Notes: generated by a model not told the origin, from the letters alone. A DNA stretch of 64,000 bases from Candidatus Eiseniibacteriota bacterium (GCA_023129715.1 JAGMBO010000008.1:58340-122339), one strand, 5' to 3'; shown: positions 6,677-55,867, counted from the stretch's first letter. Numbers and translations: made by a program.

Positions 6677-6692
6677 CCCCCCCCCGGGGGGG
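6677..6692. repeat. C9G7 homopolymer palindrome
   Basis: cccccccccggggggg in the 3' region between the GATase-like gene and the CoA-transferase promoter. Confidence 0.5.
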
Positions 6693-6796
6693 TCGCAGAG
6701 CGGACGGTTGCGCATGGTTCCCTCGCGCTGCGGCAAGGTGCAACAGAATTAGATCAACTAATACTGATTATCGCCCATCAGCATCATGCTGCGCAA

Positions 6797-6858
6797 GGGT
6801 CGACCGCCCCGGGTCGACTGCCCCGCCTGTTGCTGCCCGCCTATGGTCGACTGGCCCG
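6797..6858. promoter_or_regulatory. three direct repeats containing palindromic GTCGAC in the upstream region of the CoA-transferase/GNAT gene
   Basis: gggtcgaccgcccc / gggtcgactgcccc / tggtcgactggccc, located 150-215 nt upstream of the minus-strand start at 6643. Confidence 0.35.
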
Positions 6859-6910
6859 CACCCCCGCGCCCAGGCACCGAGTGCCCTGTGGGCCTCTTGC
6901 TCGTTGCTCA

Positions 6911-9823
6911 TCAGTCGACGATGAGCATCCGCCGTGTCCAGACCCGGCTGCCAAGACGGAGGCGGCAGACGTAGAGACCTGCGGCAAGGCCTAGGCCCGC
7001 GTCGTCCGCGGACCAGCGCACTGCGCCGTCTTCAACGCCGCGCGCACCGCGCCAGACGAGCCTGCCCGAGATGTCGGAGATCTCCAGCTCGAGCTGGGTG
7101 ATGCCTCCCGAAATGTGCACCGGGATCCGAAACTCACCGAGGCAGGGATTCGGGCGGACGACCCCGATGGCGGTCCCACCCTCCTCATCGGGTGCATCCT
7201 CATCGGCGCCTTCCAGCGTCACATCCCCAAGCCCCCAATCGGGGTGGGTGACGGCCGTCGCCACCACGACCGGCTCCGGGCTTCCCGGAGTATGGAGCTC
7301 GACGCGCAGCTCCCAGCTCGATGGCGGCAGGCTGTCGGGCCAGGCGGTATGCCCCGAGCAGGCCTGCAGGCAGAGGGTGTCGGGCGCTGCGCCGCTGATC
7401 GTCCGATAGCGGGTGCTGCCGACATCGGTCCACGTCTCGCCATCCGGGCTCAGGAAGAGCGCCAGCGAGACCTGGGTCGTGCCACCGACGCAATCGGGGT
7501 CGCCGCAAACCTCGAGGGCGGTGAAGAAACCATCCCCATCCTCGTCTCCCGTCAAGGTGACCCACACCGCGGCCAGCGAGAGCTCTGGTTCGTCGAGTGC
7601 GAGAAACTGGGGCACCTCCCCCGGAATGAAGACCGCCAGGGTCTGCTCGGGAATCGGCGCCCAGCCGCCCTGCCCCGAGCCGAGCGACTCGGAAGCGACC
7701 ACCCAGAAGGGCGAGGCCTCCCCGTTGCGCCCGGCGGGCGCCGGGTAGTAGTGCTCGAAGTTGTATCCCGGTCCATAGTGCTGCAGCGCGTAGAGCGTGT
7801 CCCCCCGGGTGAGGACGAAATTGAGCATCTGTTCGTAGTCGTCGTGCAAGCCGGCATCCGCAACGATCGTACGCACAGCCGAGAGCAGGGCCGTCGTGAA
7901 ATCATCCTCTGGACGCTCGTCGATCAACTTGAACAGATAAAGCAGATAGAGCTCGGAGTCGATGTATCCGGTCCCGGGCGCACCGGGCGAATGATCGGGG
8001 GGATTGCAGAAGAGAAAGCTCGATCCCAGGCGGTCCTCCAATGCATCGGCATCGAGCCCCCCGTTGTGGGCGAAGAGGATCCCGCGGTGTTGGAAGGGAT
8101 GGGGATTGGGAATGCCACAGTGCCCCGAGCTGCCCCGCCGCACATGGGCAATCACCGCCGGCGGGAGGATCGCGGCGATCTCTTCGACCGCAAGTCTATA
8201 CTCCGGTTCGTGGGTGTCGCGGGCGGGAGGACCGCCCCGGCGGATCAGTGGCCGCCGCAGGGGAAGCTCGAGGTCGGCGGGGAGAAAACAGCCGATGCCC
8301 CACCCGTCGTCGTTGGTCTGCCCGAGTTCTCTCAAGTTCTGCCGTGATCCGTTCCAGAGGTGGTCGGTCACCATCTCGGAGGTGTAGTCCTGGCCGATCA
8401 GGCTCCAGAACCTGCAATTGTGCGCCACCGCGGGGACCGCCCGCTGTGGGCTCGTGGGCGGGCGCTCCTCGGGAAGGATCCCGCTCTGCGCGCGGTGGAC
8501 TGCGTGCGCCCCTGCCGCCGCGTCCGTCCCCGCGCCGGACGCCGCCCGATCTCCGCCGGCCGCATCGACGGACAGGAAGGTGGGCTCTTCACCGGGCACG
8601 AAGACGGCCAAGGTGCGCGGGGGGATCTGCGCCCAGGCGAGCGCATCCGAGCCGAGCGGTTCGGAGGCGACGGCCCAATAGGGCGAATCCTGCTTGCCCC
8701 CCGCGCCAGAGGAGCCCGCGCCCCGGCGCCCGCCCGGCGTATAGACCAGCGCATTGCTCGAACCGCTGCCATAGTAGTGCAACGCATAGAGGGTGTCGGC
8801 ACGGGTCAGCACGAAATTGAGCGCGGGCGACCCGCCCACGATTCGCGGATCGGCGGCGAAGGCGGCAACGGCCGCAACGAGTGCCTCGGTGAACTCGAGC
8901 GCGGGATGCTCACCGGCGTATTTCAGCAGACCGAGAAAGAGCAGCTCCGAGTCGATGTGTCCGGTCCCGCTGAAACCTTCCTTGTAGTCGGGGGGATGGC
9001 CGGTCAGATACTTGTCGAGATAGGCTTCGAGGCCCGCCTCGCGCACCCCGCCGTTGTGGGCGAAGAGCATCCCTTGATGGCGGAAGGGGTGGGGGTTGGG
9101 AATGCCCCAGTGGCCGGAGGTGCCGAAACGGACGTGGGCGATCGCCGCCTTGGGGCTGAGATCGGCCATCTCGGCCACCGTGAGACCATACTCGGGCTCG
9201 TGGGGATGCCCGGCGTAGGGACCGCCACGCCGGATGACCGCCATCTGCAGGGGGACGCGAGCGGAGTCGGACGGGAAGTAGCCGATGCCCCAGCCATCCG
9301 GGTTCTCCTGCCCCAAGCGCATCAGGTTCTCGTGACTGCCGTCGCGCAGGTGATCGGTGATCAGGTGGGCCGGACAGCCGCTTCCGATCAGGCCCCAGAG
9401 CCGGCAATTGTGGGGCACGGCGCCCAGGTTGCCGCCGTGGGGCCCGGCACCCACGCTGCCGCTGTGGGACTCGGCGCCCTCGCTGCCGCCGTGGGACTCG
9501 GCGCCGACGTTGCCGCTGTAGGACTCGGCGCCGACGTTGCCGCCGTGGGACTCGGCGCCGACGTTGCCGCTGTAGGACTCGGCGCCGACGTTGCCGCCGC
9601 CCGGAGATCCCGGGGGCACCACGGGCACCGAGAGTTCGCTTGGTCCTGCGAGCACCAAGAGCCCGGCCAGGGCGACCGGCCACAGCGCCGGCCCAAGGGC
9701 CCGGGCCCGGCGCCGGCCCGAATCGGCAGGCGCCGCCCCGCGCGGGACGGCTTTCTCCCGGATTGCGACTACGGCCTTCCAGGCGTAGAGTAACCCCTTC
9801 GGACTCATGGATTTCATCCGCAT
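6911..9823 (-). CDS. secreted protein with two tandem class-II glutamine amidotransferase-like (Ntn-hydrolase, YafJ/EgtC-type) domains, N-terminal 10-aa repeats and a T9SS C-terminal sorting domain
   Basis: 970 aa. Two homologous domains each begin HNCR(L/F)W(G/S)LIG and contain ...AHVR.G.SGH.GIPNPHPF.H.G.LFAHNGG. A GNVGAESxxG repeat region precedes them. The C-terminal ...GLYVCRLRLGSRVWTRRMLIVD resembles the Por/T9SS CTD. The N-terminus is hydrophobic and signal-like. Confidence 0.6.
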   Translation of the reverse strand: MRMKSMSPKGLLYAWKAVVAIREKAVPRGAAPADSGRRRARALGPALWPVALAGLLVLAGPSELSVPVVPPGSPGGGNVGAESYSGNVGAESHGGNVGAESYSGNVGAESHGGSEGAESHSGSVGAGPHGGNLGAVPHNCRLWGLIGSGCPAHLITDHLRDGSHENLMRLGQENPDGWGIGYFPSDSARVPLQMAVIRRGGPYAGHPHEPEYGLTVAEMADLSPKAAIAHVRFGTSGHWGIPNPHPFRHQGMLFAHNGGVREAGLEAYLDKYLTGHPPDYKEGFSGTGHIDSELLFLGLLKYAGEHPALEFTEALVAAVAAFAADPRIVGGSPALNFVLTRADTLYALHYYGSGSSNALVYTPGGRRGAGSSGAGGKQDSPYWAVASEPLGSDALAWAQIPPRTLAVFVPGEEPTFLSVDAAGGDRAASGAGTDAAAGAHAVHRAQSGILPEERPPTSPQRAVPAVAHNCRFWSLIGQDYTSEMVTDHLWNGSRQNLRELGQTNDDGWGIGCFLPADLELPLRRPLIRRGGPPARDTHEPEYRLAVEEIAAILPPAVIAHVRRGSSGHCGIPNPHPFQHRGILFAHNGGLDADALEDRLGSSFLFCNPPDHSPGAPGTGYIDSELYLLYLFKLIDERPEDDFTTALLSAVRTIVADAGLHDDYEQMLNFVLTRGDTLYALQHYGPGYNFEHYYPAPAGRNGEASPFWVVASESLGSGQGGWAPIPEQTLAVFIPGEVPQFLALDEPELSLAAVWVTLTGDEDGDGFFTALEVCGDPDCVGGTTQVSLALFLSPDGETWTDVGSTRYRTISGAAPDTLCLQACSGHTAWPDSLPPSSWELRVELHTPGSPEPVVVATAVTHPDWGLGDVTLEGADEDAPDEEGGTAIGVVRPNPCLGEFRIPVHISGGITQLELEISDISGRLVWRGARGVEDGAVRWSADDAGLGLAAGLYVCRLRLGSRVWTRRMLIVD
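9420..9605. repeat. ~30-bp tandem repeat array (~5-6 copies) inside the secreted GATase-II-like gene
   Basis: ggactcggcgccgacgttgccgc(c/t)gt(g/a)g repeated head-to-tail. Encodes GNVGAESxxG peptide repeats on the minus strand. Confidence 0.7.
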
Positions 9824-9850
9824 CGCCCTCTGGCCGGAGGTTTCCCCACG

Positions 9851-10924: not shown

Positions 10925-10927
10925 CAA

Positions 10928-17309: not shown

Positions 17310-19358
17310 CTACTCGACGATTGCTTTCGCGAAAGCGTCCACGGAGTCTGAGTAGAAATCGATCGTGATCTTGGTCGCCAGGTCATCGGGCAGATCGAAG
17401 AGCTGCCGGCGCGAGGAGATCGGCATGAGCAATTGCAGCGCGCCCTTCTCGACAGCCAGCTCAGCAATGGCGACCGGATTGGGAATCATCTCCACGGATC
17501 CGCCGAGGTTCAAAGCCCCGACGACGATCAAGCCGCCCTTGATGCTCCTCTCGATGAGTCCGCCGCACAGGGCGAGGAGAACCGGCAGGCCGAGCCCGGC
17601 CCCGGAGCGTTCAACGTCCATCGCGCGCATCTGGATGGAGAACTCATGGCCTCGTGGGTCCCGGTCTCCAACCAGCTCCCTGGCGCGCGTATAGAGGTTC
17701 TGCTCCCCGTAGCGCACGCTCTCGCTGAAGGCGGGTGGCTTGGGGGCATTGAGGATCTTGACCCCACTACCACGTCCCACGCTGACCTCGATCCGATAGA
17801 GGGAGACTGCCCCCTCCTGACCACCCGGGCTGATCGCCCAGATCTGTCCGGGCGGCAACGGATCGGTTTCGATCGCGTCGTCGCTATGCAGCTCAGGAGT
17901 GGCAACAAACTGCTCGACCCCATCGACACCCATGAAGAAGCTGAAGTGGGTGTTGCGGAACTCCGCCTTGAGGCAGCGCTTCTGCTGCTCCTTCACCCGG
18001 CGCCGCGCTTCCAGAGCCCAGCGCACGATCGTCTCCAGTTCCTCATCTGGAACAGGCGTGGCGGGATCCGGGAAGATGAGTTTCAGCAAGCCGCTGGTGG
18101 TCTTGTGCACCGCTTCGATGTCGCGTCCGCTCAGGGCACCCCCCCAGTTTACCCGCCCCTGCAATGCGGGAACCCGACTACCGGTGCGTAGTTTATTCCA
18201 GCATTCGGAGAGGAAGTCGCTGACCAATCCAAAATGGTCGGTCAGATGCTCGCTGGCATTCAGTTTCGGGAAATCCCAGCCGGGAGCGTAGGCGTGCAGA
18301 CGGTCCATGAAGGCCGTGTCCCTACGCATCTCAGGTGGCAGGGGATCGAGCAGGTGACTGATGCGCTGCTGTTGTTCGACATCCAGGTCGAGGTTGCCCA
18401 CCATCACGATGGCACCGGAGGCCCGAATGCTCTCCTTCCCGCGAGAAAACTCACCCGAGGCCATGTAGCCCTTCATGATGTTGACGCCATCCTTCTTGTC
18501 GAAGGCGATCCCGGCCACCTCGTCGAAGCAGACGACATCGTAGAGGCAGACCAGCCCCCGCTGGCCATTGGCCATGTTGACGAACATCTTGGCGACGGTC
18601 GCCTTGCCGCCGGAGATCAGGTGGGCGTAGGGAGAGATCTGTTGGTAAAGATGACTCTTGCCAGTACCGCGGGGACCGAGTTCGACGAAATTGTAGTTAC
18701 TCTCGACGAAGGGAACCATGCGCAGCAGGGTCACCATCTTGGCGCGCTCCGACAGGGCTTCGGGCTCAAGGCCGATCGAGCGGATCAGCAGGTTCTTCCA
18801 TTCCTCGGTGGTGAACTGCGTGCGCGCCTTCTGGAGCACGGCCAGGACATCTGGCTTTGACAACTGGATGGCACGCAGGCTCTCGATGGCAAAGGGACGA
18901 CCGTTACGTTCCTCGGCAATCGTCGCACTGTAAGTGAGTTTGACCTCGGCGTAGAAGCCGTCGGTCAGCATCCGCTCGTGCTCATGAACCAGGTCATCAC
19001 CGATACGGACATCCCGGAGACCCACACTGGTCAGCTCCACCAGGAAACAATCGTTGCGGGAATCGAGGCGCGCCTTGACCAGATCGATCAGTTTGACCGA
19101 TCCCTTCTCGCGTGCGCGGGCCTTGAAAAGCTCCTGCTCCCCGGTCCGAACAGTCCGATCCTGAAGCTGGCGCTCCACCACTTGGAGACCTTCCTCGATC
19201 TCGGTCTCGTCGACCGTCGCACAATAGCGTCCCAGGAGGAATTCCACGACATAGGTCGGCACCGGATACTGTCGGCTGTACTTACGGACCAGGTCCTTGC
19301 GAACCAGGTATCCATCCAGAGCCGCTGCCGCGAGTTTGTCGAGGTGATCAAGTTCCAT
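17310..19358 (-). CDS. brxL: BREX system Lon protease-like protein BrxL
   Basis: 682 aa. Central P-loop region (ELGPRGTGKSHLYQQISPY), C-terminal Lon-protease-like domain and size match BrxL. Terminal gene of a brxABC-pglXZ-brxL cluster. Confidence 0.85.
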   Translation of the reverse strand: MELDHLDKLAAAALDGYLVRKDLVRKYSRQYPVPTYVVEFLLGRYCATVDETEIEEGLQVVERQLQDRTVRTGEQELFKARAREKGSVKLIDLVKARLDSRNDCFLVELTSVGLRDVRIGDDLVHEHERMLTDGFYAEVKLTYSATIAEERNGRPFAIESLRAIQLSKPDVLAVLQKARTQFTTEEWKNLLIRSIGLEPEALSERAKMVTLLRMVPFVESNYNFVELGPRGTGKSHLYQQISPYAHLISGGKATVAKMFVNMANGQRGLVCLYDVVCFDEVAGIAFDKKDGVNIMKGYMASGEFSRGKESIRASGAIVMVGNLDLDVEQQQRISHLLDPLPPEMRRDTAFMDRLHAYAPGWDFPKLNASEHLTDHFGLVSDFLSECWNKLRTGSRVPALQGRVNWGGALSGRDIEAVHKTTSGLLKLIFPDPATPVPDEELETIVRWALEARRRVKEQQKRCLKAEFRNTHFSFFMGVDGVEQFVATPELHSDDAIETDPLPPGQIWAISPGGQEGAVSLYRIEVSVGRGSGVKILNAPKPPAFSESVRYGEQNLYTRARELVGDRDPRGHEFSIQMRAMDVERSGAGLGLPVLLALCGGLIERSIKGGLIVVGALNLGGSVEMIPNPVAIAELAVEKGALQLLMPISSRRQLFDLPDDLATKITIDFYSDSVDAFAKAIVE

Positions 19359-19360
19359 GA

Positions 19361-21820
19361 CTACTCCTCACCACCGATTGTGGTGGCCGTCTTGCCCAGC
19401 ACGCGTCCGGACGGATCCAGAATGACCAGGCTAACGATCGTGCCTTCCAGAGAATCATCTTCCACGAGGAGTCCCGCCCGGCCGTCCGGGTCGAGCGATT
19501 TGGGTTGCGTGACACTTGAAGTGGGATCATTCGGCTTGGTGCGCAGGTCCGCCGTGAGCTGCGCGGTTGCAGCTTCCACCGCCATAGGCGCGCCCGAGGC
19601 TTCCACGGTGACCCGGCAGCGAAGCCCTCGCCACTGGATGTCGGTGATGGTTGCTTCCCGCGGTGCCACCTGGCTGCCGGCGGCAAGGCGCAGATCGGGG
19701 ATCAGGCACTCCTGCAGGCTGACGCCACCATGGGCGTACTCATTCCCACTCAGGAAGCAATGCACACCAGGACCATAGGCAAATCGCTCGTGCTCGTTCC
19801 AGTGCCATGCGGCAGTCGGAACATCCAAGTGGGAGCTATCCTTGATTGACGCACAGCGGCTCCAGCGGCTCTCGGTCAAGTACTTGGGCAACTTGACCGT
19901 CGGCAACCCGCCGGGAACCAGCAACCAGCCGTGATCGGTCACAACGCGCACCCGCTGCCATCCACTCTCGAGCAGACCCGTGATGCGCTCCAGGAGAAGA
20001 TCCAGTTGCTCATCGATTCGGGCTGCTAGCTTCGCTTTCAGACTGTGGCCGAGCTTGTCGAACTCCCCATACTCAGTCCAGCCGCGAGCGTTCGGCGCGT
20101 GGGGATCTCCCTTCTCGTCCGGCTCGAGGATCTGATGGCCGGAAGCAGACAGCAGCTTGCGAAAGCGAGCGGTGTTGATCGGCTGATGGCCGTCGATCGT
20201 CTCGGGCTGAAACCCCGACTCGGGCCGATGACCTGTCAGTTCCTCAGCAACAGGCGAAACAGCCGGCTTGGCGGTGGCGGTCACGGTGGGCAAGGCTGCC
20301 CAGCGCCAGCCGGCCACAACCTGAAGCCCGGCTTCCACGGCCGAGTCGACCAACCGCTGGGCAATGTCGAATCGAAGGCCATCGACAAAGAGAATGCACT
20401 CGCCCGTCTCAGCGCTAACGCGTACGGACCCGGGAAGACTTGAAGAACCAGGGAAACCAGAAGACCCGGAGGAAGCAGGACGCCCGGCAACCTCACTAAC
20501 CTGCCCGTGAGTTGACCGTTGGAGCCCGGCAGTCTCGACCTGGGACTGCAACCGCCGCGCAGAATCCTCCAGCCATGAGAGATAGAGACAGCGCACGGCA
20601 GCCTGGATGGCCTGGCAATCCTCGTCACTCTTGACCTCCGCGACGGCCCTTAGCGCCGCATCATCGGCGCGATAGGCTCCCTCCACATACAACTGCGCCA
20701 TGAAATCGGGAGAGTCGCCGCCGATCGCCTTCGCCGTTCGCTCGCTCAGGATCGTCAGGTGCCGAAGCGCTTGAGCCAGGGGACACATATCCAGCTTGGC
20801 CCAGACCCAGTCGCGGCGTGCGCCATGCTCTTCCTCCAATGCGGTGATCTTCTCCCGTCCTGCCGATGCGGGGATATCCCGCAACGCGAGCAGCTCAAGC
20901 CGGAGGGCGTCTTCGGCCGCATCGTTCTCATCCGGCCAGGAGTGCTTGTCGAAGATGATCTCTCCCGCGGGCTTGGCGCGTCGCAGGAGATCAGGGATCC
21001 CTGGGTAGAGGGCTGGCGACTCGGCGTAGCGCTGCCAGACCCCCTGCCAGGCATCGCGGCCGAGTCCGAGCTTCTCACCACCGACGATCTCACCGTCGTC
21101 CTCGGGATCGAAGGCGTAATCCTCCCGGCAGCGGGACCGAAATGCCGACCAGGCGGCTTCATCCCACTCCGCTCGCGTGCCGGCCGGATCTCCCAGCCAG
21201 AGGAGCAAGTCGCGGGGGATGTCCCCGATCATCAGCTCATCGAAATCCTTGGCCGTGAGCCGCCGACCGCGCAGCCGCGAGAGCGAGGTGGTGGTTATTA
21301 CGGAAAGTGCACCAAGCATCGCCTGACGAGTATGTGTGTCACGGACCATATCCAGACCCAGACCGCCGTCTTCCGATACCAGGAAGGCCTCGACAGTCCA
21401 GTCCTTGCCATTCTTCTGCGCCCAGGTTGTGCCGCGAAACTGCAGCTCGACCAAAGGCTTCATCGCATCGGGACACTCTTCTGCCGCGCGCAGCAGTTGG
21501 CGGCCAACTTCCGGCAGGTAGATAATCGGGGTCGCAGCTTCGGGCAGCGTGACTTCCGGCAAGCTGCGCTCGATCACACATCGCAGCCAGATGGCCGGTC
21601 CAGTTCGGGCGTTGGGGTTGTACTCCCCCAGGGTCAGTAGTTCCGGGAGCAACGACCGCAGCTGCTTGACGACCGGCCGCCACTGGCCATCCGGATCGGT
21701 CCACAGTATGGCGGCCGGTGCAACCACATCGGCAGGGTTGAATCGCCCGGCCTCCATGACAGAGGTCTTGACCGCCTCGAGCAGGGTGGCGTGCTGTTGA
21801 GTTGAGTGTTGCATCGTCAC
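19361..21820 (-). CDS. pglZ: BREX alkaline-phosphatase-superfamily protein PglZ
   Basis: 819 aa. VVTDHGWLLVPGG motif of the PglZ domain. Overlaps pglX by 4 nt and sits 3 nt upstream of brxL. Confidence 0.85.
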   Translation of the reverse strand: MTMQHSTQQHATLLEAVKTSVMEAGRFNPADVVAPAAILWTDPDGQWRPVVKQLRSLLPELLTLGEYNPNARTGPAIWLRCVIERSLPEVTLPEAATPIIYLPEVGRQLLRAAEECPDAMKPLVELQFRGTTWAQKNGKDWTVEAFLVSEDGGLGLDMVRDTHTRQAMLGALSVITTTSLSRLRGRRLTAKDFDELMIGDIPRDLLLWLGDPAGTRAEWDEAAWSAFRSRCREDYAFDPEDDGEIVGGEKLGLGRDAWQGVWQRYAESPALYPGIPDLLRRAKPAGEIIFDKHSWPDENDAAEDALRLELLALRDIPASAGREKITALEEEHGARRDWVWAKLDMCPLAQALRHLTILSERTAKAIGGDSPDFMAQLYVEGAYRADDAALRAVAEVKSDEDCQAIQAAVRCLYLSWLEDSARRLQSQVETAGLQRSTHGQVSEVAGRPASSGSSGFPGSSSLPGSVRVSAETGECILFVDGLRFDIAQRLVDSAVEAGLQVVAGWRWAALPTVTATAKPAVSPVAEELTGHRPESGFQPETIDGHQPINTARFRKLLSASGHQILEPDEKGDPHAPNARGWTEYGEFDKLGHSLKAKLAARIDEQLDLLLERITGLLESGWQRVRVVTDHGWLLVPGGLPTVKLPKYLTESRWSRCASIKDSSHLDVPTAAWHWNEHERFAYGPGVHCFLSGNEYAHGGVSLQECLIPDLRLAAGSQVAPREATITDIQWRGLRCRVTVEASGAPMAVEAATAQLTADLRTKPNDPTSSVTQPKSLDPDGRAGLLVEDDSLEGTIVSLVILDPSGRVLGKTATTIGGEE

Positions 21821-24800
21821 CTGCTGACCTCTTTCTCTGTGTCATTCTTCGCCCGAGCCTTGCGCTTGACAGCGATGGTGTAGTGACAGGCGTTGTATCG
21901 ATTGCCGTCGAACCTGCTGCCGCCCATCCAATCGGTTGTGCGCTCGTCCCAGCCCCAGAACCATGGATGCTCCTCGCGCTCCCTGCTGGGCTCCTTCCCG
22001 CGATCCTTGCCCCACTTGATGTTGGGCTTCCAGCGCAGGATCCCGGCACCCCTGCGCCCATTCGGCAAGTCACTGGCCAGGAACGGGCGGATGTTCAAGC
22101 GCACGCCATCGTTGATGTCGGGCTCCCAGCCGATGGGCTGTTCGGCGAGGGGTTTCCAGCGCACGAAGATGTCGAAGGGTGGCTCACCTGCGAGGATCGC
22201 CTCCAGGCGTTGCTTGAGTTCCATCGCCGCGGTTAAACGTTCTTCCGCACCGCCGGCACCTCGCTTGACACCATCCTTCTGACAGGTGATCCAGTCACCC
22301 AAATAGCTGTAGGTCAGGTTCTCAAGGAGCATGCGGGCTTGGGCCTTTCCCTCGGCCAGCCGGTGGTAGTTGACCAGCGCGTGGAACCCATCGCGCTTGC
22401 GCCCATCCCAGATGTGCCAGATGAAGGGGCGATGGTGTAACAGCTTGCAGTGTTGCTGGAAGAAGTCGCTGCGGAGCCAGTCGTCGAGGTCCTTGGCGGG
22501 CGATCCGCTCTCGGAAATGAGCGCCGCTTCCCTGTCTGGTGACCAGTCGGTGCCGTAGGCAGTGGCCAGGAGTGCGCGCAAGCGTTCGGCGGCAGGATCT
22601 TCACCGCGAACGGATGCGATGCAGACGATGCCGTCGCGGTCCGAATACCTCTCGAGTTCGCCACAGCGACCGATCAGTTCCCGGGCCTCGGTGGAGAGGC
22701 GCATCTCCTTGTCGGTCTCCGCCGGCCAGCGGTAGCCGAGGAGGCGACCGACGGCCACCTGCAGCGGAGCCGTCGAGACTTCGGGGCGACCGTGGAAGAG
22801 CCATTGGGTTGGGTCGTCGGAGTAGGGTTCGGGAAGACCGTGGGGGTATTTCTCGTCGGCAACCTTCTGCCAGTGTTCGAGATCGAAGGGGACTTTCGTA
22901 ATCGTGGCTGCTGTGACATTCAACTTCTGGTCGATCAATCGAACGCCTCTATGAAAGCCAGAAGATGAGACGTACGCCCACAGTGCGGGGATTATGGATG
23001 GATCATCCGGACATATCGGGCACACATTGTCATCAAAGACCTCGCCCAAGTACAAGAACGGCTCCAAGTCCCGCATCTTATTGACCGCGACGCCTAGACG
23101 TTCCCATACATCTTGACCACGGAGCCAGCATCCGAACTGGGAGACAAGATCTGGATGATCAAGGGGGCACACGCAGAATCGCTCGCGTCCCGACCAAGGA
23201 TCACCCGATTGAGGGGAATTCAACCAGAGGACGGCATCAGTAGAAATGCGAGCCACAGTCCAGAAATGCCGAAGGAACCGTGGGGCGTCTCCAGTGGTGC
23301 TGCCCTTGCCATAACGCGCGCATTCGCTCAGCCACGGGCCAGCCTCCGTCCCCTGACCAATAATCCTGGAATCCGGATTCTCCAACTGCCCTGCCTGGCC
23401 GACCATCCGTACCGCGCCCCAAGGCACATCGGAAGATGCCGCAACCCTGGACACGCCCGGCGAGCCTCCCCCTCCGTCACTGACGGCGCCCTCCTCCGGC
23501 GGCGCCCAACGCACCTCACCCCCCTCCCCTCGCAACATCGCCGCCTTTACCTTGGGATCCCGCGGCTCGGAGGCATCGAGACCGGCAAACCGATGCTCTG
23601 CTGCCGGGCGCGATCGCGTCAGGGAGAGGAGCGCTGTGAATGCCCCCGCTGCTTGTGAGCTCTGAAACCCGTTCTCCCCCAACCTCGCCACCACATCCCA
23701 CTGAACCTCCACCAAAAGCTCCTGGCGCAGCTTCTTGTACGATCCCAGAAAGAGCCAGTTCTGCGGCGTGACCAGTGCGGCCGTGCCGCCAGAAGCACAG
23801 AAAGCCCGGGCGCGCGCGACAAAGGCCGTGGCGAGATCATGCTTGGCCTTGTTGTGGCGCAGTTCAATGAATTCCTTGAGGATCGGAGCCTGCTTACCAC
23901 GAGCGAGGTAGGGTACATTGGTAATCACCAAGTGATAGATACTCCCAAGAAGGCCCACCGCATCAGCCACGCCGCGGGTCGAGACAGCCAACTCGTGGCG
24001 ATCGTAGTCACGCCCTCCGGGACTAGCCTGAGCTGCCTCTTCCAGCACCGAGCGCAGTTCATCGAACCCCGCCTCCAGCAGATCATCATGTGTCGCGCGA
24101 GCGGGGTCGATGAGGCTCCCCAGCGTGGGCGCCTCCTGAAAGAGTTTGTGCAAGCGCTCAATGCCCTTCTGCGTACGAAGATCATCACCGGCCAGGGCGC
24201 ACCAGTCGGCCTGACTTGCTTGCGGTGCGATGCCTGAGCAGGCGATGCGGATCTCGGGAAGCTTCCGATGCCCTCCCGCGTCCGGATAGGTCCATGCGCA
24301 CAGGGCGATCGCGAAAGCGGCGATTTGCGTGCAGCGCTCATCGATCTCGAGACCAGACAGATTCTCGCGCAGGACTGCATCCACAGCATCCCGAGCTGTG
24401 AAACCCTCCTCGGCCATGCGGATTGGCACGAGATGACGGATCAAACTCACCAAGAAGTGGCCGGAACCGCAACAGGGATCAAGCACCCGCAAGTCGGCCG
24501 CCGCTCGTGGCCAGCCCGGGAAGATACCCGCCGCCGGCTGCCAGGGCCTGTCACCATCGTCACCGCGTACGAAGCGCAGGTAGTCCCAGGTCACGCCAGG
24601 AAGAGACAGCGCCCGGCGGAGCTGTTCCTCACTCTCGGCGGAGGTTGCCAGAGATGGATCCTTCGATAGCTTTCTGCCGGCCCACCAGGCCCCCAGCGTG
24701 TTGTGGATCAAGAAGCTCACCATGTAAGGCTCGGTGAAGAGCTGGGTCACCGCCGGCAGCTCATCGGCGCCGATCTTCTCCCCGGATGCGTTGACCTCGG

Positions 24801-25377
24801 CCTTGCGCTTGCTTTGCCAGTACTGATAGACCCAGCCGAGGGCATCGGCCGCCGTGAAAGTTGCCGGGTGCAGTCCATTCAGGAGACGTTCCAGCTTGAG
24901 CTGATGCTCGCGTGCCAAGCCAACTCTGAGTAGGGGATCATCAGGGCGAAAGATCTGCGGCAACATGCGCTCGGCACACCGGCTGGCATAGCCCCATCGG
25001 TCAACGCCGCTCGCTTTACCCAGCTCCTCGGCCTCATCGAGACTGATCGGCATCTGGCTCTCGGGCTCGATGAGCAGAGCATTTTCAGCAAGGAAACGCG
25101 CAAAGAGCATCCGGTGCCAATGCTCGTAGGCACATTCCTGCACAAGGCGGAGAAGCTGCAGACGCCCGGACCGGTCCTGAGCATCCCCGAGTTGGCGTGC
25201 CCGGGCGCGCAAGTGATTGCGCAGGTGCCGGGCGTTGGAATCCATGTGCGTGTAGGGCTCGTGGTGGTGAACGGCAAGGGATTCGAGGGCGGTTCGGGCG
25301 CCTTCCTCGGCAGCTTCACGCGCCTCGATGATGGCTCGCTCGAGCTTACTGCGCAATTCGGATGCAAGTGCAGTCAT
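21817..25377 (-). CDS. pglX: BREX adenine-specific DNA methyltransferase PglX
   Basis: 1186 aa. AdoMet motif I VLDPCCGSGHFLV. Motif IV region reads VITNVPYLARGKQ (NVPY instead of the canonical NPPY). Size and position match PglX. Confidence 0.85.
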   Translation of the reverse strand: MTALASELRSKLERAIIEAREAAEEGARTALESLAVHHHEPYTHMDSNARHLRNHLRARARQLGDAQDRSGRLQLLRLVQECAYEHWHRMLFARFLAENALLIEPESQMPISLDEAEELGKASGVDRWGYASRCAERMLPQIFRPDDPLLRVGLAREHQLKLERLLNGLHPATFTAADALGWVYQYWQSKRKAEVNASGEKIGADELPAVTQLFTEPYMVSFLIHNTLGAWWAGRKLSKDPSLATSAESEEQLRRALSLPGVTWDYLRFVRGDDGDRPWQPAAGIFPGWPRAAADLRVLDPCCGSGHFLVSLIRHLVPIRMAEEGFTARDAVDAVLRENLSGLEIDERCTQIAAFAIALCAWTYPDAGGHRKLPEIRIACSGIAPQASQADWCALAGDDLRTQKGIERLHKLFQEAPTLGSLIDPARATHDDLLEAGFDELRSVLEEAAQASPGGRDYDRHELAVSTRGVADAVGLLGSIYHLVITNVPYLARGKQAPILKEFIELRHNKAKHDLATAFVARARAFCASGGTAALVTPQNWLFLGSYKKLRQELLVEVQWDVVARLGENGFQSSQAAGAFTALLSLTRSRPAAEHRFAGLDASEPRDPKVKAAMLRGEGGEVRWAPPEEGAVSDGGGGSPGVSRVAASSDVPWGAVRMVGQAGQLENPDSRIIGQGTEAGPWLSECARYGKGSTTGDAPRFLRHFWTVARISTDAVLWLNSPQSGDPWSGRERFCVCPLDHPDLVSQFGCWLRGQDVWERLGVAVNKMRDLEPFLYLGEVFDDNVCPICPDDPSIIPALWAYVSSSGFHRGVRLIDQKLNVTAATITKVPFDLEHWQKVADEKYPHGLPEPYSDDPTQWLFHGRPEVSTAPLQVAVGRLLGYRWPAETDKEMRLSTEARELIGRCGELERYSDRDGIVCIASVRGEDPAAERLRALLATAYGTDWSPDREAALISESGSPAKDLDDWLRSDFFQQHCKLLHHRPFIWHIWDGRKRDGFHALVNYHRLAEGKAQARMLLENLTYSYLGDWITCQKDGVKRGAGGAEERLTAAMELKQRLEAILAGEPPFDIFVRWKPLAEQPIGWEPDINDGVRLNIRPFLASDLPNGRRGAGILRWKPNIKWGKDRGKEPSREREEHPWFWGWDERTTDWMGGSRFDGNRYNACHYTIAVKRKARAKNDTEKEVSR

Positions 25378-25974: not shown

Positions 25975-27462
25975 TTATGAGCCATTTCCGGAACCATCGC
26001 CCGCTGATGAGCCGCTTGAGTCGTTTATGGGCCGTTTCCGTGGCACCTCGTAGTGGGCGCCGCGCCCAGCACCCGCCAGGACCAACAGGCCTTTGCTCAC
26101 CAGGTCGTCCAAGTCGCGTTTGGCGGTCGCCCGGCTGATGCCGGCAAGCTCCTGATACCGCCGGTTCGTAATCCGTCCCTCCCGTCGGGCAACGACCACG
26201 CTCTTTCTCTGCCGCTCGTTGAGTTCCATACCGGCCAGCACCTCCGTCGTCAGCCAATCCCGCCACAGTGCCTGGACGAACTGGCCTCCTTCCTGCCTGA
26301 ACTCAGGCTCGGGTAAGCCCGCCCCCCGGCACAGGGCGATCATGTCCAGCGTGCCGGTGCCGGCGCGTTCGATATAGTGGGCGAGAAAGAGCGCTTCGCT
26401 CAGAAGCGGGTTGCGGGGAATGGACGCGTGCGGGACGCGCAGCTGCGCCAGGGTCAGCTCCGGCGGCAGCTCCCCAGGGTTCCAAACCTCCAGCCGGTCG
26501 GCAAAGAGCATCACCTGGACGCTGGCGTTGCTAGCGTAGTCGCGGTGCGCCACGGCGTTGACGATGGCCTCAGCCACGGCTTCGCGCGGGAACTCGTACG
26601 CGACGGGCGCCTGCGGACCCCGGGCGCGTGTGCCCACGGAGCGGGTGACCTTGGACATCACAAAGTCGACCGCCTGATCCACCAGCTCGAACGCCGTGCC
26701 CTTGTAGACCTGGTAGGACGGGATGGGCTTGCGCACCTCGGTGCCGTGGAAGTGCAGGCACTTGACTTCGGAGGCGAGCAGGAAGCGTTGCGGCTGGTTG
26801 GCGAACAGAAGGATGGCGGCGTGGCTGGGCCGCCCGGCGTCGAGCAGGTTGAGATGGGCTAGCACTTCGGCTGGTGGCGTTTCCTCGCCGAGCGGGTACT
26901 GTCGCTCGCGGCGGGCGCTGCCGAGGAACCACCGCACCTTCTCCGCCGAGATGTCCTCGACTGAGGCTTCCGGACAGGCCGCCGCATCGAAAGGCCGCGT
27001 GCGGAGCTTGCCGGTTCGCTCGAGGTGCTCGACCAGGCTGGCGTACAGGGCGCCGGTCAGCTCGGGAATGCCCGCGAACCGACGGCGAATCACCTGCCCA
27101 CCCGCCTGGCGGATTAGCGCCCGCATCTTCGGGTGTCGTCCTTTGTTGGTCGAACCCTTCACGAAGATGAGCCGGACCTTGTTTTGGGCCGTGGCCTTAT
27201 CGAACTCTTGCTCGGTGGGTGAGATCCCCTCGGCATCCTCACTGCCGTACTCGTTGCCCAAGAGCCCCAGGTAGAGGGCGCAGCGGCCCACCTCGTCGAG
27301 GTAGACGTCATCAGCCCGGCGATCGGAGGCGGGCAGACCTTCGAAGAGGAAAACATCGAAGAAGCGCCGCAGCAGGGCATCGCCGCGGACGAAGGCCCGA
27401 ACGGCGGCCCGTTCGTCTTGGAGTTCCTTCTGGACGCTGCTGACGAAGATGCGCTCGATCAT
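25975..27462 (-). CDS. DUF4062-domain / HATPase_c_4 (RecG-C-terminal-like) / winged-HTH protein (COG2865-like without AlbA_2 head), embedded in the BREX operon
   Basis: Start at MIERIFVSS. The N-terminal ~140 aa match the DUF4062 pattern (IFVSS..EL..ER.AV...V....L...F..F.FE.LPA.D..ADDVYLDEV..C.LYLGLLGNEYGS). The middle region has LTNAGLLLFG-like LLFANQPQRFLLASEVKCLHF. The HATPase_c_4 signature is AEAIVNAVAHRDY...DRLEVWNPGELP. The C-terminal wHTH is ITNRRYQELAGISRATAKRDLDDLVSKGLL. Confidence 0.6.
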   Translation of the reverse strand: MIERIFVSSVQKELQDERAAVRAFVRGDALLRRFFDVFLFEGLPASDRRADDVYLDEVGRCALYLGLLGNEYGSEDAEGISPTEQEFDKATAQNKVRLIFVKGSTNKGRHPKMRALIRQAGGQVIRRRFAGIPELTGALYASLVEHLERTGKLRTRPFDAAACPEASVEDISAEKVRWFLGSARRERQYPLGEETPPAEVLAHLNLLDAGRPSHAAILLFANQPQRFLLASEVKCLHFHGTEVRKPIPSYQVYKGTAFELVDQAVDFVMSKVTRSVGTRARGPQAPVAYEFPREAVAEAIVNAVAHRDYASNASVQVMLFADRLEVWNPGELPPELTLAQLRVPHASIPRNPLLSEALFLAHYIERAGTGTLDMIALCRGAGLPEPEFRQEGGQFVQALWRDWLTTEVLAGMELNERQRKSVVVARREGRITNRRYQELAGISRATAKRDLDDLVSKGLLVLAGAGRGAHYEVPRKRPINDSSGSSAGDGSGNGS

Positions 27463-28065
27463 CGGGACCCCTCCGCGAAGCCGAGGGTCGGCTCTCCGAT
27501 GTTCTTGATGCGGCGTCTGGCCATGAGTCCATCCATGGGTTTGCATAGGTGGGCGGTTGATTTTCCGTTCGCGCCGGGCGTGAAGACCCCTCGGAAGCGG
27601 GCCCCTTGGTCTTGCCTGCGCCTTCCCGTTCTACCGAGGCAACCGACCCAGGCCCGACATCCTATCGCTCTCCGTGGGCGGTTGCATCCCCGCGGAGTGC
27701 TGTTGGCAGTGGAGAAAACCGCGCTTGGCCTGCGCTCTCCGGCGGGCGCGTGGAACCGCTGTACCAACCCCCGGTCGATGGCATCTCGGATGACGCGAGA
27801 AGCCATCGAGTAGTTCTTCTTGTCTATTCGCAGGCGTTCTCGCAGCGTGCTGTTGCTCATCTGTCTTCCAGATACATGGCAGAGACATGCATGCTGGTAG
27901 CAGGCACGAACCGCAGATCGGCGTTGCTCTCCTTGAACTCGACCCATTCAGTCTCTTTGGGAAGAGCGCACAGAGAATGCACTCGCTGTGCCAACTCCTC
28001 CGCGCTCATCAGGCCATGCGCACGCTCTGCCACATACCCCTGGTTCATCAGGCTCTGTCCCTCCA

Positions 28066-52992: not shown

Positions 52993-55677
52993 CTATCGCA
53001 CGAGCAGCAAACGCGCAGTTCGTGTCTCGCCGGCAGCCCGGAGTCGCAGCACATAGGCCCCAGTCGGAACCTGGCGGCCGCGCTGATCGCGGCCATCCCA
53101 GATGACGCGATGGTCTCCCGCGGGACGCCGCTCAGAGACCAGTGCCCGCACTTGTCGGCCGATCAGATCGAAGACGGCCAAGTTCACATCGCTCCGGGCC
53201 GGCAACGCAAAACCGATCGAACTGCTCCCGACGGCCGGGTTGGGCCACGGGCATTGCAGCGTCAGCGCCCGCGGCACACCACGAGCTCCCGGCCCATTGT
53301 CGACCGCCGCCTGCCCGCCGACCACCTCGAGGGCCACCAGCGCGGCCGCGCTGCGCGACTCACCCACCATGACGACAATCTCGGCCTCGTGGGATCCCGC
53401 GGCCAGGTCTGCGGCCGAGGCGTCCAGCTCGATAAGCGCCACCGCACCCGCCGCAATCGTGCCGGCGGTGGGAGTGGCACGCAGCCACGACACGCTCTCA
53501 CCAGAATCGATGTTCAGTAGACGGATGCGGAAAGAGAGCGGCTCGACACCTTGAGCGGCAAGCACGATACGAAGCTCCCCAGTGCGCGACCCACCAACCT
53601 CGAGCACCCAGGAAAGCCCCGCGGGGTTGAGATCCACGACCGGCGGCACTTTCTCCTCGACATCGATCAAAGCCACATGGGGAATGTGATTGAAGCCGGT
53701 CACCGTCAGGGTGATCGCCTCGTGCCGGGGCAGCGGGGCCAACCCCTCGATACGCGCATCACCGGATTCGTCGGTCAGTGCCGATCCCAGTGTGGTTCCC
53801 TGGAAACTGAGGGCGCAGAGCGCACCGGCCACGCCCGGCACGGAGAGCGTGAAGCTTTCCGCCTCGGGATCGATGCGCCGCGCGTGATCGACCGCAAGCG
53901 GTTCGGGGGTGTCACAGCGCACGACCATCGAGGGATCGCCGAAGATGTGCCAGTGCAGGAACTCGCTGCGGCCGCCCGGGTCGTACTCGTCCATCATCAG
54001 GAGGCTGCCCCGGTAGCAGAGCGCCCCAAAGACGGTCTCGCTCTCGGCGACCAGGAGATCGACCGTCTCGTCTTGAGCGGCCATCGGCGGCGCCCAGGCC
54101 ATGTCGGCGGAGGAGGCATACATGCCGACCGCACCTGTCGGCATACCGTTGTGGCTGGCCCGTAACCAGGCCTCGGCGAAACAGGTGCCCGAGGCGAAGC
54201 GCCCGTTCTTGCAGGCTACCGAGAAGACCCACGGCAGCTGGTTGTGATTCTCCAACGCACCGACCTGCTCATTGCTGAAGCCGGTCGTCGTCCAGCGCAT
54301 CGAGGAGCCGTGGCCGCAGTAGTTGATGATGCTGCGGCCCGCATTGACGGCATCGGTGACCATCTGCGCGGTCGCCTGGTAGGGAATCGCCGCGTAGATC
54401 GTGTCGACTTGCGTATAGGTGAAGTTGAGCAGATCGGTGCGGATGTAGTCGATGTGAATGAAGTCCGCCTCGTCGTCGTCTCCGTACTCATCCCCCTGTC
54501 CCGAACCGATGCCGACACCCTTGTGGTACCAGCTTCCACCGACCTCGGGACTCTGCTCGTAGTCGACGAACTTGCGGACCTGCAGGATCACTCCCTCGAC
54601 CGTCTCGGCCGAGAGGCGACCAACGATGAGATCCGGGTAGTAGTCGTCGCCCTCGACCAGCGAGTAGGAAGGGTCGGAGTATCCGAACGGAACGTAGGGC
54701 GACGGGACTTGCGCCGCATCCCCGACGAGCAGCACGTAGGCCAGATTGTGAATCCGATAGAGGCTCTGGATGTAGGCCAGCAGCAAATCGGGATCCGTCG
54801 CCCCGGCACCCGTATGCGAGAGCGGGACCAGCATGGTCGGCAGGCCGCGCTGGTTCTTCCAGGTGACGAAGGGCTCCATGTAGGGCACGAACTCATCGTG
54901 GGCAATGATCAGCATCTTGCCCGGCGCCAACTGATCGTTCGAATTGGGAGGCACGAAGTTGAGGAAGTGCTCGGCGTAGAGACCGGCAAAGACGGGCGCC
55001 ATCTTCTCCGGGGTCCTGGAGCGAGTCAGCAGGTTGTGCTCGGCGGCGCCGACGGGCACGACCTCCACCTCCACACGGTCATAGACCCGCAGCCGGCGCT
55101 GCCCGGGATTGTACTGCACCGGATGAAGCTCGACCACCAAGCCCCGGTAGTCGCGCAGGACATAGGGCTCGCGCCGAGCGAGGAGATCCTCTGGGTACCA
55201 GCGATCCTCCCCGTAGACAGCCCCGAACTCATAAGGAATAGTGGCCGGATCTACCGTGCGCAGCAGCGGACCCTTCGACGGAATGACATCCAGGTCGGAA
55301 TACTCACGAAAGCTGGACGCAACCACCCGCACATCCATGCGGGCGTCATCGGGGATGATGATACTGCGGCAGACATACGGGAGCGCCGGCGCGCCCCTTT
55401 CTCGCAGCTGCGGCTCTCCATCGATCCGCACATCGACATGGCGACGCCCGTCGATCTCGACCGGAACTATCCGGAAGCCTTCCAGATCGAAGACCAGACG
55501 GGTGCCCCCGGCGGCGAGTTCATCGGTCGCGACGCTGACCCATTCCGTTGAACTCAAGGTGGAGGCGGCCCCATCCAGGGGCACCAGCGTGCCCGAGTCC
55601 GCGGCCGGCGCCGGCGTTGAGACGCCCGCAGCCCAGATGAGCCCGATGATGATCGATGAGTAGTAACAGCCCCTCAT
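52993..55677 (-). CDS. peptidase C25 (gingipain-like) family protein with T9SS C-terminal sorting domain
   Basis: Start at MRGCYYSSIIIGLIWAAGVSTPAPAA (signal). Catalytic-domain motifs NYCGHGS (His) and VFSVACKNG (Cys). The C-terminal ...WPNPAVGSSSIGFALP...GAYVLRLRAAGETRTARLLLVR matches the Por_Secre_tail pattern. Confidence 0.65.
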   Translation of the reverse strand: MRGCYYSSIIIGLIWAAGVSTPAPAADSGTLVPLDGAASTLSSTEWVSVATDELAAGGTRLVFDLEGFRIVPVEIDGRRHVDVRIDGEPQLRERGAPALPYVCRSIIIPDDARMDVRVVASSFREYSDLDVIPSKGPLLRTVDPATIPYEFGAVYGEDRWYPEDLLARREPYVLRDYRGLVVELHPVQYNPGQRRLRVYDRVEVEVVPVGAAEHNLLTRSRTPEKMAPVFAGLYAEHFLNFVPPNSNDQLAPGKMLIIAHDEFVPYMEPFVTWKNQRGLPTMLVPLSHTGAGATDPDLLLAYIQSLYRIHNLAYVLLVGDAAQVPSPYVPFGYSDPSYSLVEGDDYYPDLIVGRLSAETVEGVILQVRKFVDYEQSPEVGGSWYHKGVGIGSGQGDEYGDDDEADFIHIDYIRTDLLNFTYTQVDTIYAAIPYQATAQMVTDAVNAGRSIINYCGHGSSMRWTTTGFSNEQVGALENHNQLPWVFSVACKNGRFASGTCFAEAWLRASHNGMPTGAVGMYASSADMAWAPPMAAQDETVDLLVAESETVFGALCYRGSLLMMDEYDPGGRSEFLHWHIFGDPSMVVRCDTPEPLAVDHARRIDPEAESFTLSVPGVAGALCALSFQGTTLGSALTDESGDARIEGLAPLPRHEAITLTVTGFNHIPHVALIDVEEKVPPVVDLNPAGLSWVLEVGGSRTGELRIVLAAQGVEPLSFRIRLLNIDSGESVSWLRATPTAGTIAAGAVALIELDASAADLAAGSHEAEIVVMVGESRSAAALVALEVVGGQAAVDNGPGARGVPRALTLQCPWPNPAVGSSSIGFALPARSDVNLAVFDLIGRQVRALVSERRPAGDHRVIWDGRDQRGRQVPTGAYVLRLRAAGETRTARLLLVR

Positions 55678-55867
55678 GCAGTCGTCCCCTCCATGCAGCG
55701 GTCTCTTCCGTCCGCTCGTGACCAGGGACCACCTGCTGCCGCCGACGCAACGACCCACCGGGCAGAGGGCAGACGGCCTGCCTCGGACAGTCCCTCATCT
55801 GTTCGAAGTAGAACAAGTATAGCAAAGTACGGCAGATGGGTTCTCGCCGGAGGCAGGATTTCTCCAT

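Follow-up and report, generated by a model that had tools for sequence, protein, structure and literature searches.

The 64,000-nucleotide stretch of DNA from Candidatus Eiseniibacteriota bacterium that we analyzed (GCA_023129715.1, JAGMBO010000008.1:58340-122339; hereafter the window) carries near its start, at 6911 to 9823 on the minus strand, a gene whose product joins two class II glutamine amidotransferase (GATase) domains, both N-terminal nucleophile (Ntn) hydrolases by type, in one chain. The predicted nucleophile of each domain is the internal Cys of a conserved His-x-Cys motif. On balance, we lean slightly toward a composite mechanism in which this protein is an exported zymogen that would cleave itself twice and whose activated domains would hydrolyze glutamine or gamma-glutamyl compounds. 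Membership of the class II GATase superfamily is clear, and automated annotation already says so. What we did not find described in the searchable literature is the combination of an exported branch of this superfamily, a propeptide-coupled His-x-Cys motif, a tandem arrangement with predicted internal cleavage, and a C-terminal tail like those of type IX secretion system (T9SS) cargo.

The coding sequence (CDS) is a complete open reading frame (ORF) for a 970-amino-acid (aa) product, at the position given in an earlier, sequence-only reading of this DNA (the initial annotation). The product is identical to NCBI entry MCK4412350.1, which is named [quoted passage not shown] save for which of three neighboring ATG codons is taken as the start. 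The same gene, in a 968-aa NCBI form, is also present on a 175-kb contig of assembly GCA_030629055.1; a 965-aa NCBI form led to no contig. The GC content at third codon positions of the CDS is 0.83. From the N terminus, the protein consists of a leader, a short Pro/Gly segment, seven nonapeptides, GATase domain 1, a linker, GATase domain 2, a beta-sandwich domain, and, at the C terminus, a domain of about 85 aa. The AlphaFold model of the whole protein had a mean predicted local distance difference test score (pLDDT) of 76 and a predicted template modeling score of 0.66, with both GATase domains modeled confidently. Coordinates of these and other features are collected in Table 1.

Both domains matched known class II GATase families. 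Pfam GATase_4 (PF13230; MEROPS C44) was found in two stretches with 72.8 bits against a cutoff of 23, GATase_6 also matched (34.7 bits against a cutoff of 27), and the two domains share 52% identity with each other (E = 3e-94). In a search of PDB sequences with a profile built from 17 GATase domain sequences, the top match was 3MDN (7e-16), followed by 1TE5, the PurF proteins of B. subtilis and E. coli, and EgtC (4ZFJ; 7e-4). Foldseek comparison with the PDB likewise ranked 3MDN first (probability 1.00, template modeling [TM] score 0.69 to 0.75), followed by PurF (8W7D and 1AO0) and GFAT. The confident AlphaFold model of both domains and these structural matches together display the four-layer alpha-beta-beta-alpha Ntn fold.

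We next consider the catalytic residues, which form a full set in both domains: the Cys, the Arg that follows it (C140 and R141 in domain 1), and the motifs HVR, HNG, and DSE. In alignments, the HVR of the family falls on GHVRYATAG and the HNG on AHNGN of B. subtilis PurF, and the DSE falls on the DSE of 3MDN. From PurF and GlmS, we take the HVR Arg (PurF Arg73) to be the binder of the glutamine alpha-carboxylate, HNG (Asn101-Gly102) to be the oxyanion hole, and the DSE Asp (Asp127) to be the binder of the alpha-amino group. Of 195 family domains, 193 retain the Arg, 178 the Asn and all 195 the Gly of HNG, and 188 the Asp; the nucleophile Cys does not vary among the 17 aligned domain sequences. 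The PDB profile search left the N-terminal Cys unaligned, and a search of the PDB with the single sequence aligned the central motifs alone, so the equivalence of the Cys is drawn from the structure model, in which strands 140-147 and 470-477 are predicted to open exactly at Cys140 and Cys470. The initial annotation had proposed tandem YafJ/EgtC-like GATase domains, each opening with an internal HNCR(L/F)W motif. The family matches above threshold, the mutual identity, the Ntn fold, and the near-invariant Cys, Arg, Asn-Gly, and Asp all bear this out, and neither finding that it had named as refuting (domains that do not align to GATase families, or an absent nucleophile Cys) was obtained. The motif itself reads HNCRLW (aa 138-143) in domain 1 and HNCRFW (aa 468-473) in domain 2.

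Both domains carry a His two residues ahead of the Cys, termed His(-2). All 21 aligned tandem homologues (40 to 64% identity, mostly from Eisenbacteria metagenome-assembled genomes [MAGs] and metagenomes) open domain 1 with H-x-C-R-[FL]-W, and among the wider representatives, P0039 alone has A-C, without the His, at this place. More generally, H-x-C-R-[FLM]-[WY] with His(-2) was present in 133 of the 168 Cys-containing domains. The presence of His(-2) followed the distance between the hydrophobic core of the leader and the Cys. N-terminal domains with His(-2) (n = 101) had a median gap of 21 residues, whereas those without it (n = 28) had a median gap of 6 residues, with 25 of the 28 at 9 residues or fewer (Fisher exact test at a 9-residue split, p = 6.5e-18, a statistic that ignores shared ancestry). 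Domains without His(-2) often have small residues before the Cys (S-A-S-A/C or S-T-L-A/C), in the spacing and pattern of a signal peptidase site. Furthermore, 12 tandem homologues have lost the Cys of domain 2 (to G, V, T, L, or A), and 11 of these have lost the His as well. His(-2) is thus kept exactly where a propeptide would need removal and therefore resembles a motif for autoproteolysis in cis. The segments ahead of each Cys (aa 58-137 and 427-466) were modeled with a pLDDT below 50, and the linker between the two GATase domains is kept in neither length nor sequence among homologues. Ntn hydrolases are known to activate themselves through an N-O or N-S acyl shift (PMC3256870 and PMC9140057), and H-x-S/T is described as the canonical autoproteolysis motif of GAIN/GPS domains in PMC13062082. 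Judged by sequence, the window protein has what appears to be an internal nucleophile behind a conserved processing motif, as do self-cleaving Ntn zymogens. On strong circumstantial evidence from the family, each GATase domain probably becomes active by severing itself at His-x-Cys from the chain ahead of it.

Most of the predicted propeptide of domain 1 is a tandem repeat. Tandem Repeats Finder reported 7.0 copies of a 27-bp unit (87% matches, score 261) at 9410-9599, encoding nonapeptides with the consensus G-[NS]-x-G-A-x-x-[HY]-x. The DNA sequence of unit 1 recurs unchanged in unit 3, and that of unit 2 in unit 4. His138 and Asn139 of the first motif come from the last unit, GNLGAVPHN, which ends at Asn139, directly before Cys140. 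The array is predicted to be disordered, and it was absent from every other homologue examined beyond a sister variant, P0031, from a JGI metagenome (locus L026; 934 aa, about 96% identical, and in the same 90%-identity cluster), which has three units rather than seven. The DNA of the L026 contig confirmed this difference (27 bp x 3.0 copies), with flanks that align almost perfectly with the window, and the segment ahead of the first motif measures 43 aa in one strain and 79 aa in the other. Since the unit length is a multiple of three, changes in copy number alter the length of the protein and not its reading frame. If cleavage occurs, the array would lie in a propeptide that is discarded, which would explain why copy number drifts between strains, and the gene would then show neatly how a propeptide can tolerate drift in a tandem repeat. 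The initial annotation had described decapeptide repeats of about 30 bp that could vary in length: the tandem repeats and their length variation are real, and the unit is 9 aa (27 bp, seven copies).

The two ends of the protein point to a destination outside the cell. The leader reaches a Kyte-Doolittle maximum of 2.09 at aa 46-60, within a hydrophobic core that follows a basic stretch ending in RRRAR, and the leaders found at the equivalent place in homologues are short, ordinary, and signal-like; both features fit a signal peptide. A strain variant carries a 2-aa insertion in the leader region that stays in frame, indicating that this region is translated. At the other end, beyond a beta-sandwich domain that is modeled as all-beta, has invariant D760, D762, and D764, and occurs in two copies in most homologues, lies the tail. 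Among 19 related tails, 14 matched FlgD_ig and 8 matched Por_Secre_tail. The model of the window tail (pLDDT of 96.4) was compared with 350,542 PDB chains, and the two best matches were 8qb1_A, the C-terminal domain (CTD) of mirolase (TM 0.74/0.71), and 8glk_D, the CTD of NucA in the T9SS translocon (TM 0.66/0.74), both with E values of about 1.5e-3, which are modest as expected for a query of only 85 residues. Relatives of about 400 aa from WOR-3 and TA06 MAGs consist of a leader, an H-x-C GATase domain, and a tail that passes the threshold of Por_Secre_tail with up to 51.9 bits (P0061), and some sources name these proteins “T9SS type A sorting domain-containing protein.” In addition, a tail of the same kind is found on three unrelated enzymes in the window: the GATase, a C25 peptidase, and an aminotransferase. 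The T9SS tail of the initial annotation is thus supported by related tails and by the structure model, while the window tail itself falls below the sequence thresholds. The extracellular destination that it proposed is supported by the leader, the T9SS-like tail, and the purely extracellular domain company of the relatives. We found no literature linking Eisenbacteria with type IX secretion, and the searchable literature contained no report of a class II GATase as T9SS cargo and nothing relevant on a class II GATase with a signal peptide.

Together, these data suggest the following mechanism. The N-terminal leader would carry the protein across the inner membrane, and the C-terminal domain, acting as a T9SS-type sorting signal, would direct it onto the surface of the cell or into the medium. 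The thiols of Cys140 and Cys470 would each attack the carbonyl of the preceding Asn in an N-to-S acyl shift aided by His(-2), and the resulting thioester would be hydrolyzed. Cleavage at Cys140 would remove the repeat-bearing propeptide (aa ~61-139), and cleavage between Asn469 and Cys470 would yield a domain 1 fragment and a second fragment made up of domain 2, the beta-sandwich, and the tail. Each fragment would then begin with a Cys whose free alpha-amine could serve as the general base. The mature domains would work as plain amidohydrolases, with glutamate and ammonia, an amine, or a peptide as products; amidotransfer is implausible because there is no acceptor or synthase domain and the domain company is extracellular. 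Because the HVR Arg and the DSE Asp are retained, the substrate is most likely L-glutamine or an N-terminal gamma-glutamyl compound (glutathione or other gamma-glutamyl peptides or amides), and any choice of a specific substrate among these would be a guess. Such substrates agree with those of the two characterized stand-alone relatives, EgtC and DUG3, both of which hydrolyze gamma-glutamyl compounds.

Several points weigh against this mechanism. The residue between His and Cys varies, being N at 77, E at 25, A at 20, Q at 9, and S at 2 of the 133 H-x-C sites, and the correlation of His(-2) with a propeptide fits equally well a His that acts as a base without cleavage. We know of no precedent for cleavage between two tandem class II GATase domains. 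If the cut between Asn469 and Cys470 preceded export, domain 1 would lose its sorting tail unless the fragments stayed associated; the fragments may associate as in other Ntn hydrolases, cleavage may follow export, or domain 1 may stay behind. The n-region of the leader is unusually long, at about 40 aa, and the start codons of the GATase gene and the divergent DUF362 gene are only 27 bp apart (9824-9850). The beta-sandwich scored 38.9 bits on NF038116 (“choice-of-anchor H”), under the cutoff of 53, and the tail is under the curated thresholds of both TIGR04183 (15.7 against 23 bits) and PF18962 (18.3 against 27 bits). The substrate is assigned from conserved binding residues only, and every family member comes from an uncultured lineage. 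Separately, we considered an intein-like Asn cyclization, which the H-N/C sequence of both window sites brings to mind, and find it unlikely as a general mechanism, because 56 of the 133 sites have E, A, Q, or S at position -1.

A competing explanation of the motif is that the protein is exported and active but never cleaved, with His(-2) acting as the general base of a Cys-His dyad and the leader, linker, and repeats persisting as spacers. Such a dyad predicts the coupling of His(-2) to a propeptide just as well, since the His would be dispensable wherever signal peptidase frees the amine of the Cys. If the chain stayed whole, domain 1 would also remain joined to the sorting tail, and His138-Asn139 and His468-Asn469 are modeled as more ordered than the segments that precede them. 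We nevertheless regard this explanation as unlikely. The segments ahead of the motifs are unconserved, disordered, and of different length between strains (43 to 79 aa), which is typical of discarded propeptides. In Ntn folds, moreover, the N-terminal residue lies buried where a central strand ends, so that an upstream chain would normally block the substrate pocket, and all characterized class II GATases and Ntn hydrolases use a free N-terminal amine (general knowledge; PMC9140057). A different possibility accepts self-cleavage but assigns the GATase-like domains a role mainly as maturation or release modules, comparable to GAIN/GPS and SEA domains, without a small-molecule substrate. Related domains deep within giant surface proteins, among adhesin-type modules (Cys701 of 2822 aa and Cys1099 of 3754 aa), would suit such a role, and a subclade in which domain 2 has lost its Cys and domain 1 has HSG in place of HNG suggests relaxed catalytic constraint. 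However, the Arg and Asp are not needed for self-cleavage and yet are kept in 193 and 188 of the 195 domains, and the relatives of about 400 aa consist of a leader, a GATase domain, and a sorting tail only, leaving nothing to release. We therefore consider a pure release function quite improbable.

The route of export and the identity of the Cys have alternatives of their own. The C-terminal domain might be merely immunoglobulin (Ig)-like, of the FlgD_ig type, in which case the enzyme would be periplasmic like gamma-glutamyltranspeptidase (GGT) or otherwise anchored. The subthreshold scores of the window tail, the roughly equal match to FlgD_ig, the E values of only about 1.5e-3 to T9SS CTDs, the lack of T9SS genes seen within the 64-kb window, and the silence of the literature that we found on Eisenbacteria and T9SS are all in keeping with this idea. 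In contrast, the top two of 350,542 PDB chains are both bona fide T9SS CTDs, the recurrence of the same ~80-aa tail on three unrelated window enzymes is the signature of a sorting tag, and the WOR-3 and TA06 relatives reach 51.9 bits on Por_Secre_tail and are named as T9SS type A proteins by some sources, so that an Ig-like domain without a sorting role seems a rather unlikely explanation of the tail. Finally, Cys140 follows a hydrophobic leader and the best named NCBIfam match is EgtC, as might be expected if Cys140 were the acylation site of a lipoprotein or if an intracellular EgtC-type enzyme had been misread as secreted; we find either scarcely credible. Cys140 lies 79 aa past the hydrophobic core, and the residues directly before it, P-H-N, do not form a lipobox; no shorter start codon with a lipobox exists in the sequence of the GATase protein; and a second identical motif occurs at residue 470, where lipidation is impossible. 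We rejected lipidation of Cys140 on these grounds. Orthology to EgtC was rejected as well: the EgtC model TIGR03442 scored 71.2 bits, far under its cutoff of 218.65, and the neighbors of the GATase gene, which encode a DUF362/Fer4 protein and an acetyl-CoA hydrolase, include no egtB or egtD.

Relatives of the window protein are numerous. A profile search over 1.84 billion cluster representatives returned 2952 relatives at E<1e-3, 800 at E<1e-10, and 139 at E<1e-30. In nearly all of the top 150, the predicted nucleophile is not residue 2; it lies instead about 20 to 75 residues in, after a hydrophobic leader, or deep within very large proteins (for example, Cys2080 of 3709 aa, in addition to the two named above). 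The branch occurs in Eisenbacteria, WOR-3, TA06, Zixibacteria, Cloacimonadota, some Bathyarchaeia, and giant surface proteins, in which the modules beside the GATase domain are FG-GAP, Laminin_G_3, PKD, fn3, and Peptidase_M14. Seven such giants (P0095, P0116, P0117, P0132, P0138, P0173, and P0174) of 1,100 to 3,750 aa have one internal GATase_4 domain each and also carry DUF2341 and InlB B-repeat modules. L-H-L-x-E-x-H-E-C precedes the GATase domain in five of the seven, and P0116 and P0174 are without His(-2). The internal GATase domain of these proteins could be a self-cleavage module. We also observed complementary degeneration in one subclade of tandem proteins (P0014, P0019-P0022, and P0036-P0039; alignment A1), in which neither domain has the full canonical set. 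Domain 1 of these proteins keeps the Cys, has His(-2) in all but P0039, and has HSG in place of HNG, and in domain 2, HNG is intact but the Cys has given way to T, V, G, A, or L, and His(-2) has been replaced as well. Two MAG contigs of Bathyarchaeia, which are archaea, encode H-x-C GATase relatives with 29 to 33% identity (L023 and L025); one would not expect this of a family that is otherwise linked to bacteria of the Fibrobacteres-Chlorobi-Bacteroidetes group with T9SS-type tails.

According to textbooks, class II GATases work in the cytoplasm and hand ammonia on to a synthase fused to them. If true, a branch that is exported and lacks an acceptor would place beside GGT a second kind of enzyme that hydrolyzes gamma-glutamyl compounds or glutamine outside the cytoplasm, with a bearing on how abundant uncultured phyla of soil and sediment scavenge nitrogen and glutathione. 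The His-x-Cys site, there only when a propeptide needs removal, would offer a simple rule for embedding a Cys-type Ntn domain in a larger protein, and the related domains midway in surface proteins of 2,000 to 3,700 aa raise the possibility of a new self-cleaving module. With somewhat less than even confidence, we put forward the broader proposal that these proteins form a previously undescribed extracellular branch of class II GATases, with at least 139 representatives at E<1e-30, that uses a dedicated His-x-Cys switch. In the tandem form, this switch would fire twice to make two surface Ntn enzymes from one gene product, with a hypervariable repeat propeptide that perhaps tunes the timing of activation.

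Table 1. Features of the tandem GATase gene and of other genes in the window (positions counted from the first nucleotide of the window)
Feature	Position	Strand	Basis or description
CDS, tandem class II GATase precursor	6911..9823	minus	ORF list; complete, 970 aa + stop
N-terminal leader, aa 1-60, probable export signal	9644..9823	minus	RRRAR at aa 37-41, core ALGPALWPVALAGLLVLAG at aa 42-60
Seven tandem 27-bp units, nonapeptides, aa 77-139	9407..9595	minus	Tandem Repeats Finder and unit listing
Predicted processing site 1, His138-Asn139 / Cys140	9404..9412	minus	H-x-C motif; predicted strand start at 140
GATase-II (Ntn) domain 1, aa 140-420	8564..9406	minus	Pfam GATase_4, PDB profile search, fold match
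Interdomain linker, low complexity, 47 aa, aa 421-467	8423..8563	minus	pLDDT <50 at aa 427-466
Predicted processing site 2, His468-Asn469 / Cys470	8414..8422	minus	HNCRFW in domain 2 of most homologues; predicted strand start at 470
GATase-II (Ntn) domain 2, aa 470-745	7589..8416	minus	Second GATase_4 stretch; 52% identity to domain 1
Beta-sandwich domain, aa 746-880	7184..7588	minus	Weak “choice-of-anchor H” likeness; D-x-D-x-D-G motif
C-terminal sorting-type domain, T9SS type-A-like / FlgD_ig-like, aa 886-970	6914..7168	minus	Subthreshold matches, family, structure
BrxL	17310..19358		BrxL_N + BrxL_ATPase
Eco57I/N6_Mtase-type methylase	21817..25377		1186 aa
DUF4062/HATPase_c_4 protein	25975..27546
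Gingipain-type C25 peptidase	52993..55758	minus	Propeptide_C25, Peptidase_C25, C25 Ig-like domain, tail (FlgD_ig 35.2 bits)
Class I/II (HisC/PtaA-like) pyridoxal phosphate-dependent aminotransferase	56061..57524	plus	Twin-arginine translocation-type leader SRRAFLGA (SRRAFLGATLGGAALG); FlgD_ig/T9SS-like tail

The surroundings of the GATase gene are partly conserved but offer no clue to its function. The divergent block upstream, made up of the DUF362/4Fe-4S gene and three ORFs, one of them small, is kept in four Eisenbacteria genomes at 41 to 100% protein identity, and the downstream neighbors vary between genomes. In the window (9824-14082) and in three syntenic loci (L027, L028, and L029; GATase identity of 41 to 50%), the GATase gene is always divergent from the DUF362/4Fe-4S gene, which is followed by an ORF of about 58 aa, one of 244 to 285 aa, and one of 185 to 332 aa. 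Next come an Aminotran_3 gene and a GNAT gene, except in L029. A scan of 6500-10300 for sigma-70 promoters and intrinsic terminators found none, a result that is uninformative for this phylum. Within the upstream block of the window, ORFs of 58 and 244 aa on the plus strand (11085-12092) share one frame and are split only by a TGA codon at 11259-11261 (E-P-C-G-TGA-H). The 244-aa part matched the NCBIfam model “UshA-like (seleno)protein PCGU” with 61 bits, below the cutoff of 275, and the N terminus has a lipobox-like LVLTVGGC. Going by these sequence features, 11085-12092 is probably one selenocysteine-containing lipoprotein gene that was split by ORF callers; a hairpin after the TGA codon folded no better than shuffled sequence (z = -0.8).

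Farther along the window is a bacteriophage exclusion (BREX)-like defense island at about 16200-33000, to which the BrxL, methylase, and DUF4062/HATPase_c_4 genes of Table 1 belong and in which large ORFs of 819 and 1148 aa had no Pfam match. A 1236-aa ORF on the plus strand at 34436-38146, with a signal-like N terminus (GVALLLLAAAVCGTLPAHA), had no match in Pfam or NCBIfam. Beyond these, the C25 peptidase and aminotransferase genes lie divergently. The C25 protein scored 63 bits on the model of the PorU sortase, far below the cutoff of 420, and therefore looks like cargo rather than a T9SS sortase. The tail of the aminotransferase scored 33.2 bits, above the cutoff of 27, and an exported aminotransferase is unusual in itself. 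The initial annotation had drawn these two genes and the GATase gene together as a toolkit for scavenging extracellular peptides and amino acids. Both genes exist, and both proteins have the same kind of tail. However, they are 43 to 47 kb from the GATase gene, past the BREX-like island, and show no synteny with it elsewhere. Linkage therefore does not support the toolkit, which amounts to no more than a co-occurrence of proteins with the same sorting tail.

Among the known systems closest to the window protein are stand-alone GATase_4 proteins of the YafJ type (3MDN, which is SPO2029 of Ruegeria pomeroyi, and 1TE5), with which it shares family, fold, catalytic set, and the lack of a fused synthase. 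Known members of this type reside in the cytoplasm, consist of one domain (about 250 aa in all), and have their Cys at position 2, where removal of Met bares it, whereas the window protein is a tandem with a leader, a propeptide and linker that each carry His-x-Cys, a beta-sandwich, and a sorting tail. In overall layout, with a leader, an enzyme, one or more Ig-like domains, and a C-terminal beta-sandwich of about 80 aa, it resembles T9SS type A cargo, such as gingipains, mirolase, and NucA, but differs in that its tail is subthreshold by sequence and its host is an Eisenbacteria MAG without a documented T9SS in the literature found. EgtC (4ZFJ) and fungal DUG3 belong to the same GATase_4-type group and are gamma-glutamyl amidohydrolases rather than amidotransferases, and EgtC also begins with C-R; we take EgtC to be the gamma-glutamyl-hercynylcysteine sulfoxide hydrolase and DUG3 to act in glutathione degradation. 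DUG3 has been described as a class II GATase (PMC12653102). Unlike the window protein, both are intracellular and have no propeptide.

PurF and GltB of B. subtilis are class II GATases with a removable N-terminal propeptide ahead of Cys1, and PurF aligns with the window domains at HVR and HNG and in structure. Their precursors shed the propeptide to expose Cys1 (MEROPS C44); these propeptides are short (11 aa in PurF), both enzymes are cytoplasmic amidotransferases with acceptor domains, and we know of no conserved His(-2) in their propeptides. Looking beyond class II GATases, GGT acts on gamma-glutamyl compounds, and glycosylasparaginase is cut at H-D/T, with a His at -2. These two proteins belong to other Ntn families with a Thr nucleophile, a different topology, and no sequence similarity to the window protein, and both were absent from the PDB profile and Foldseek matches of its domains. 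They are nonetheless analogous to it as extracytoplasmic zymogens that cut themselves internally by an acyl shift (PMC3256870 and PMC9140057). With L-glutamine or gamma-glutamyl compounds as substrates, the window protein would be a functional counterpart of periplasmic GGT.

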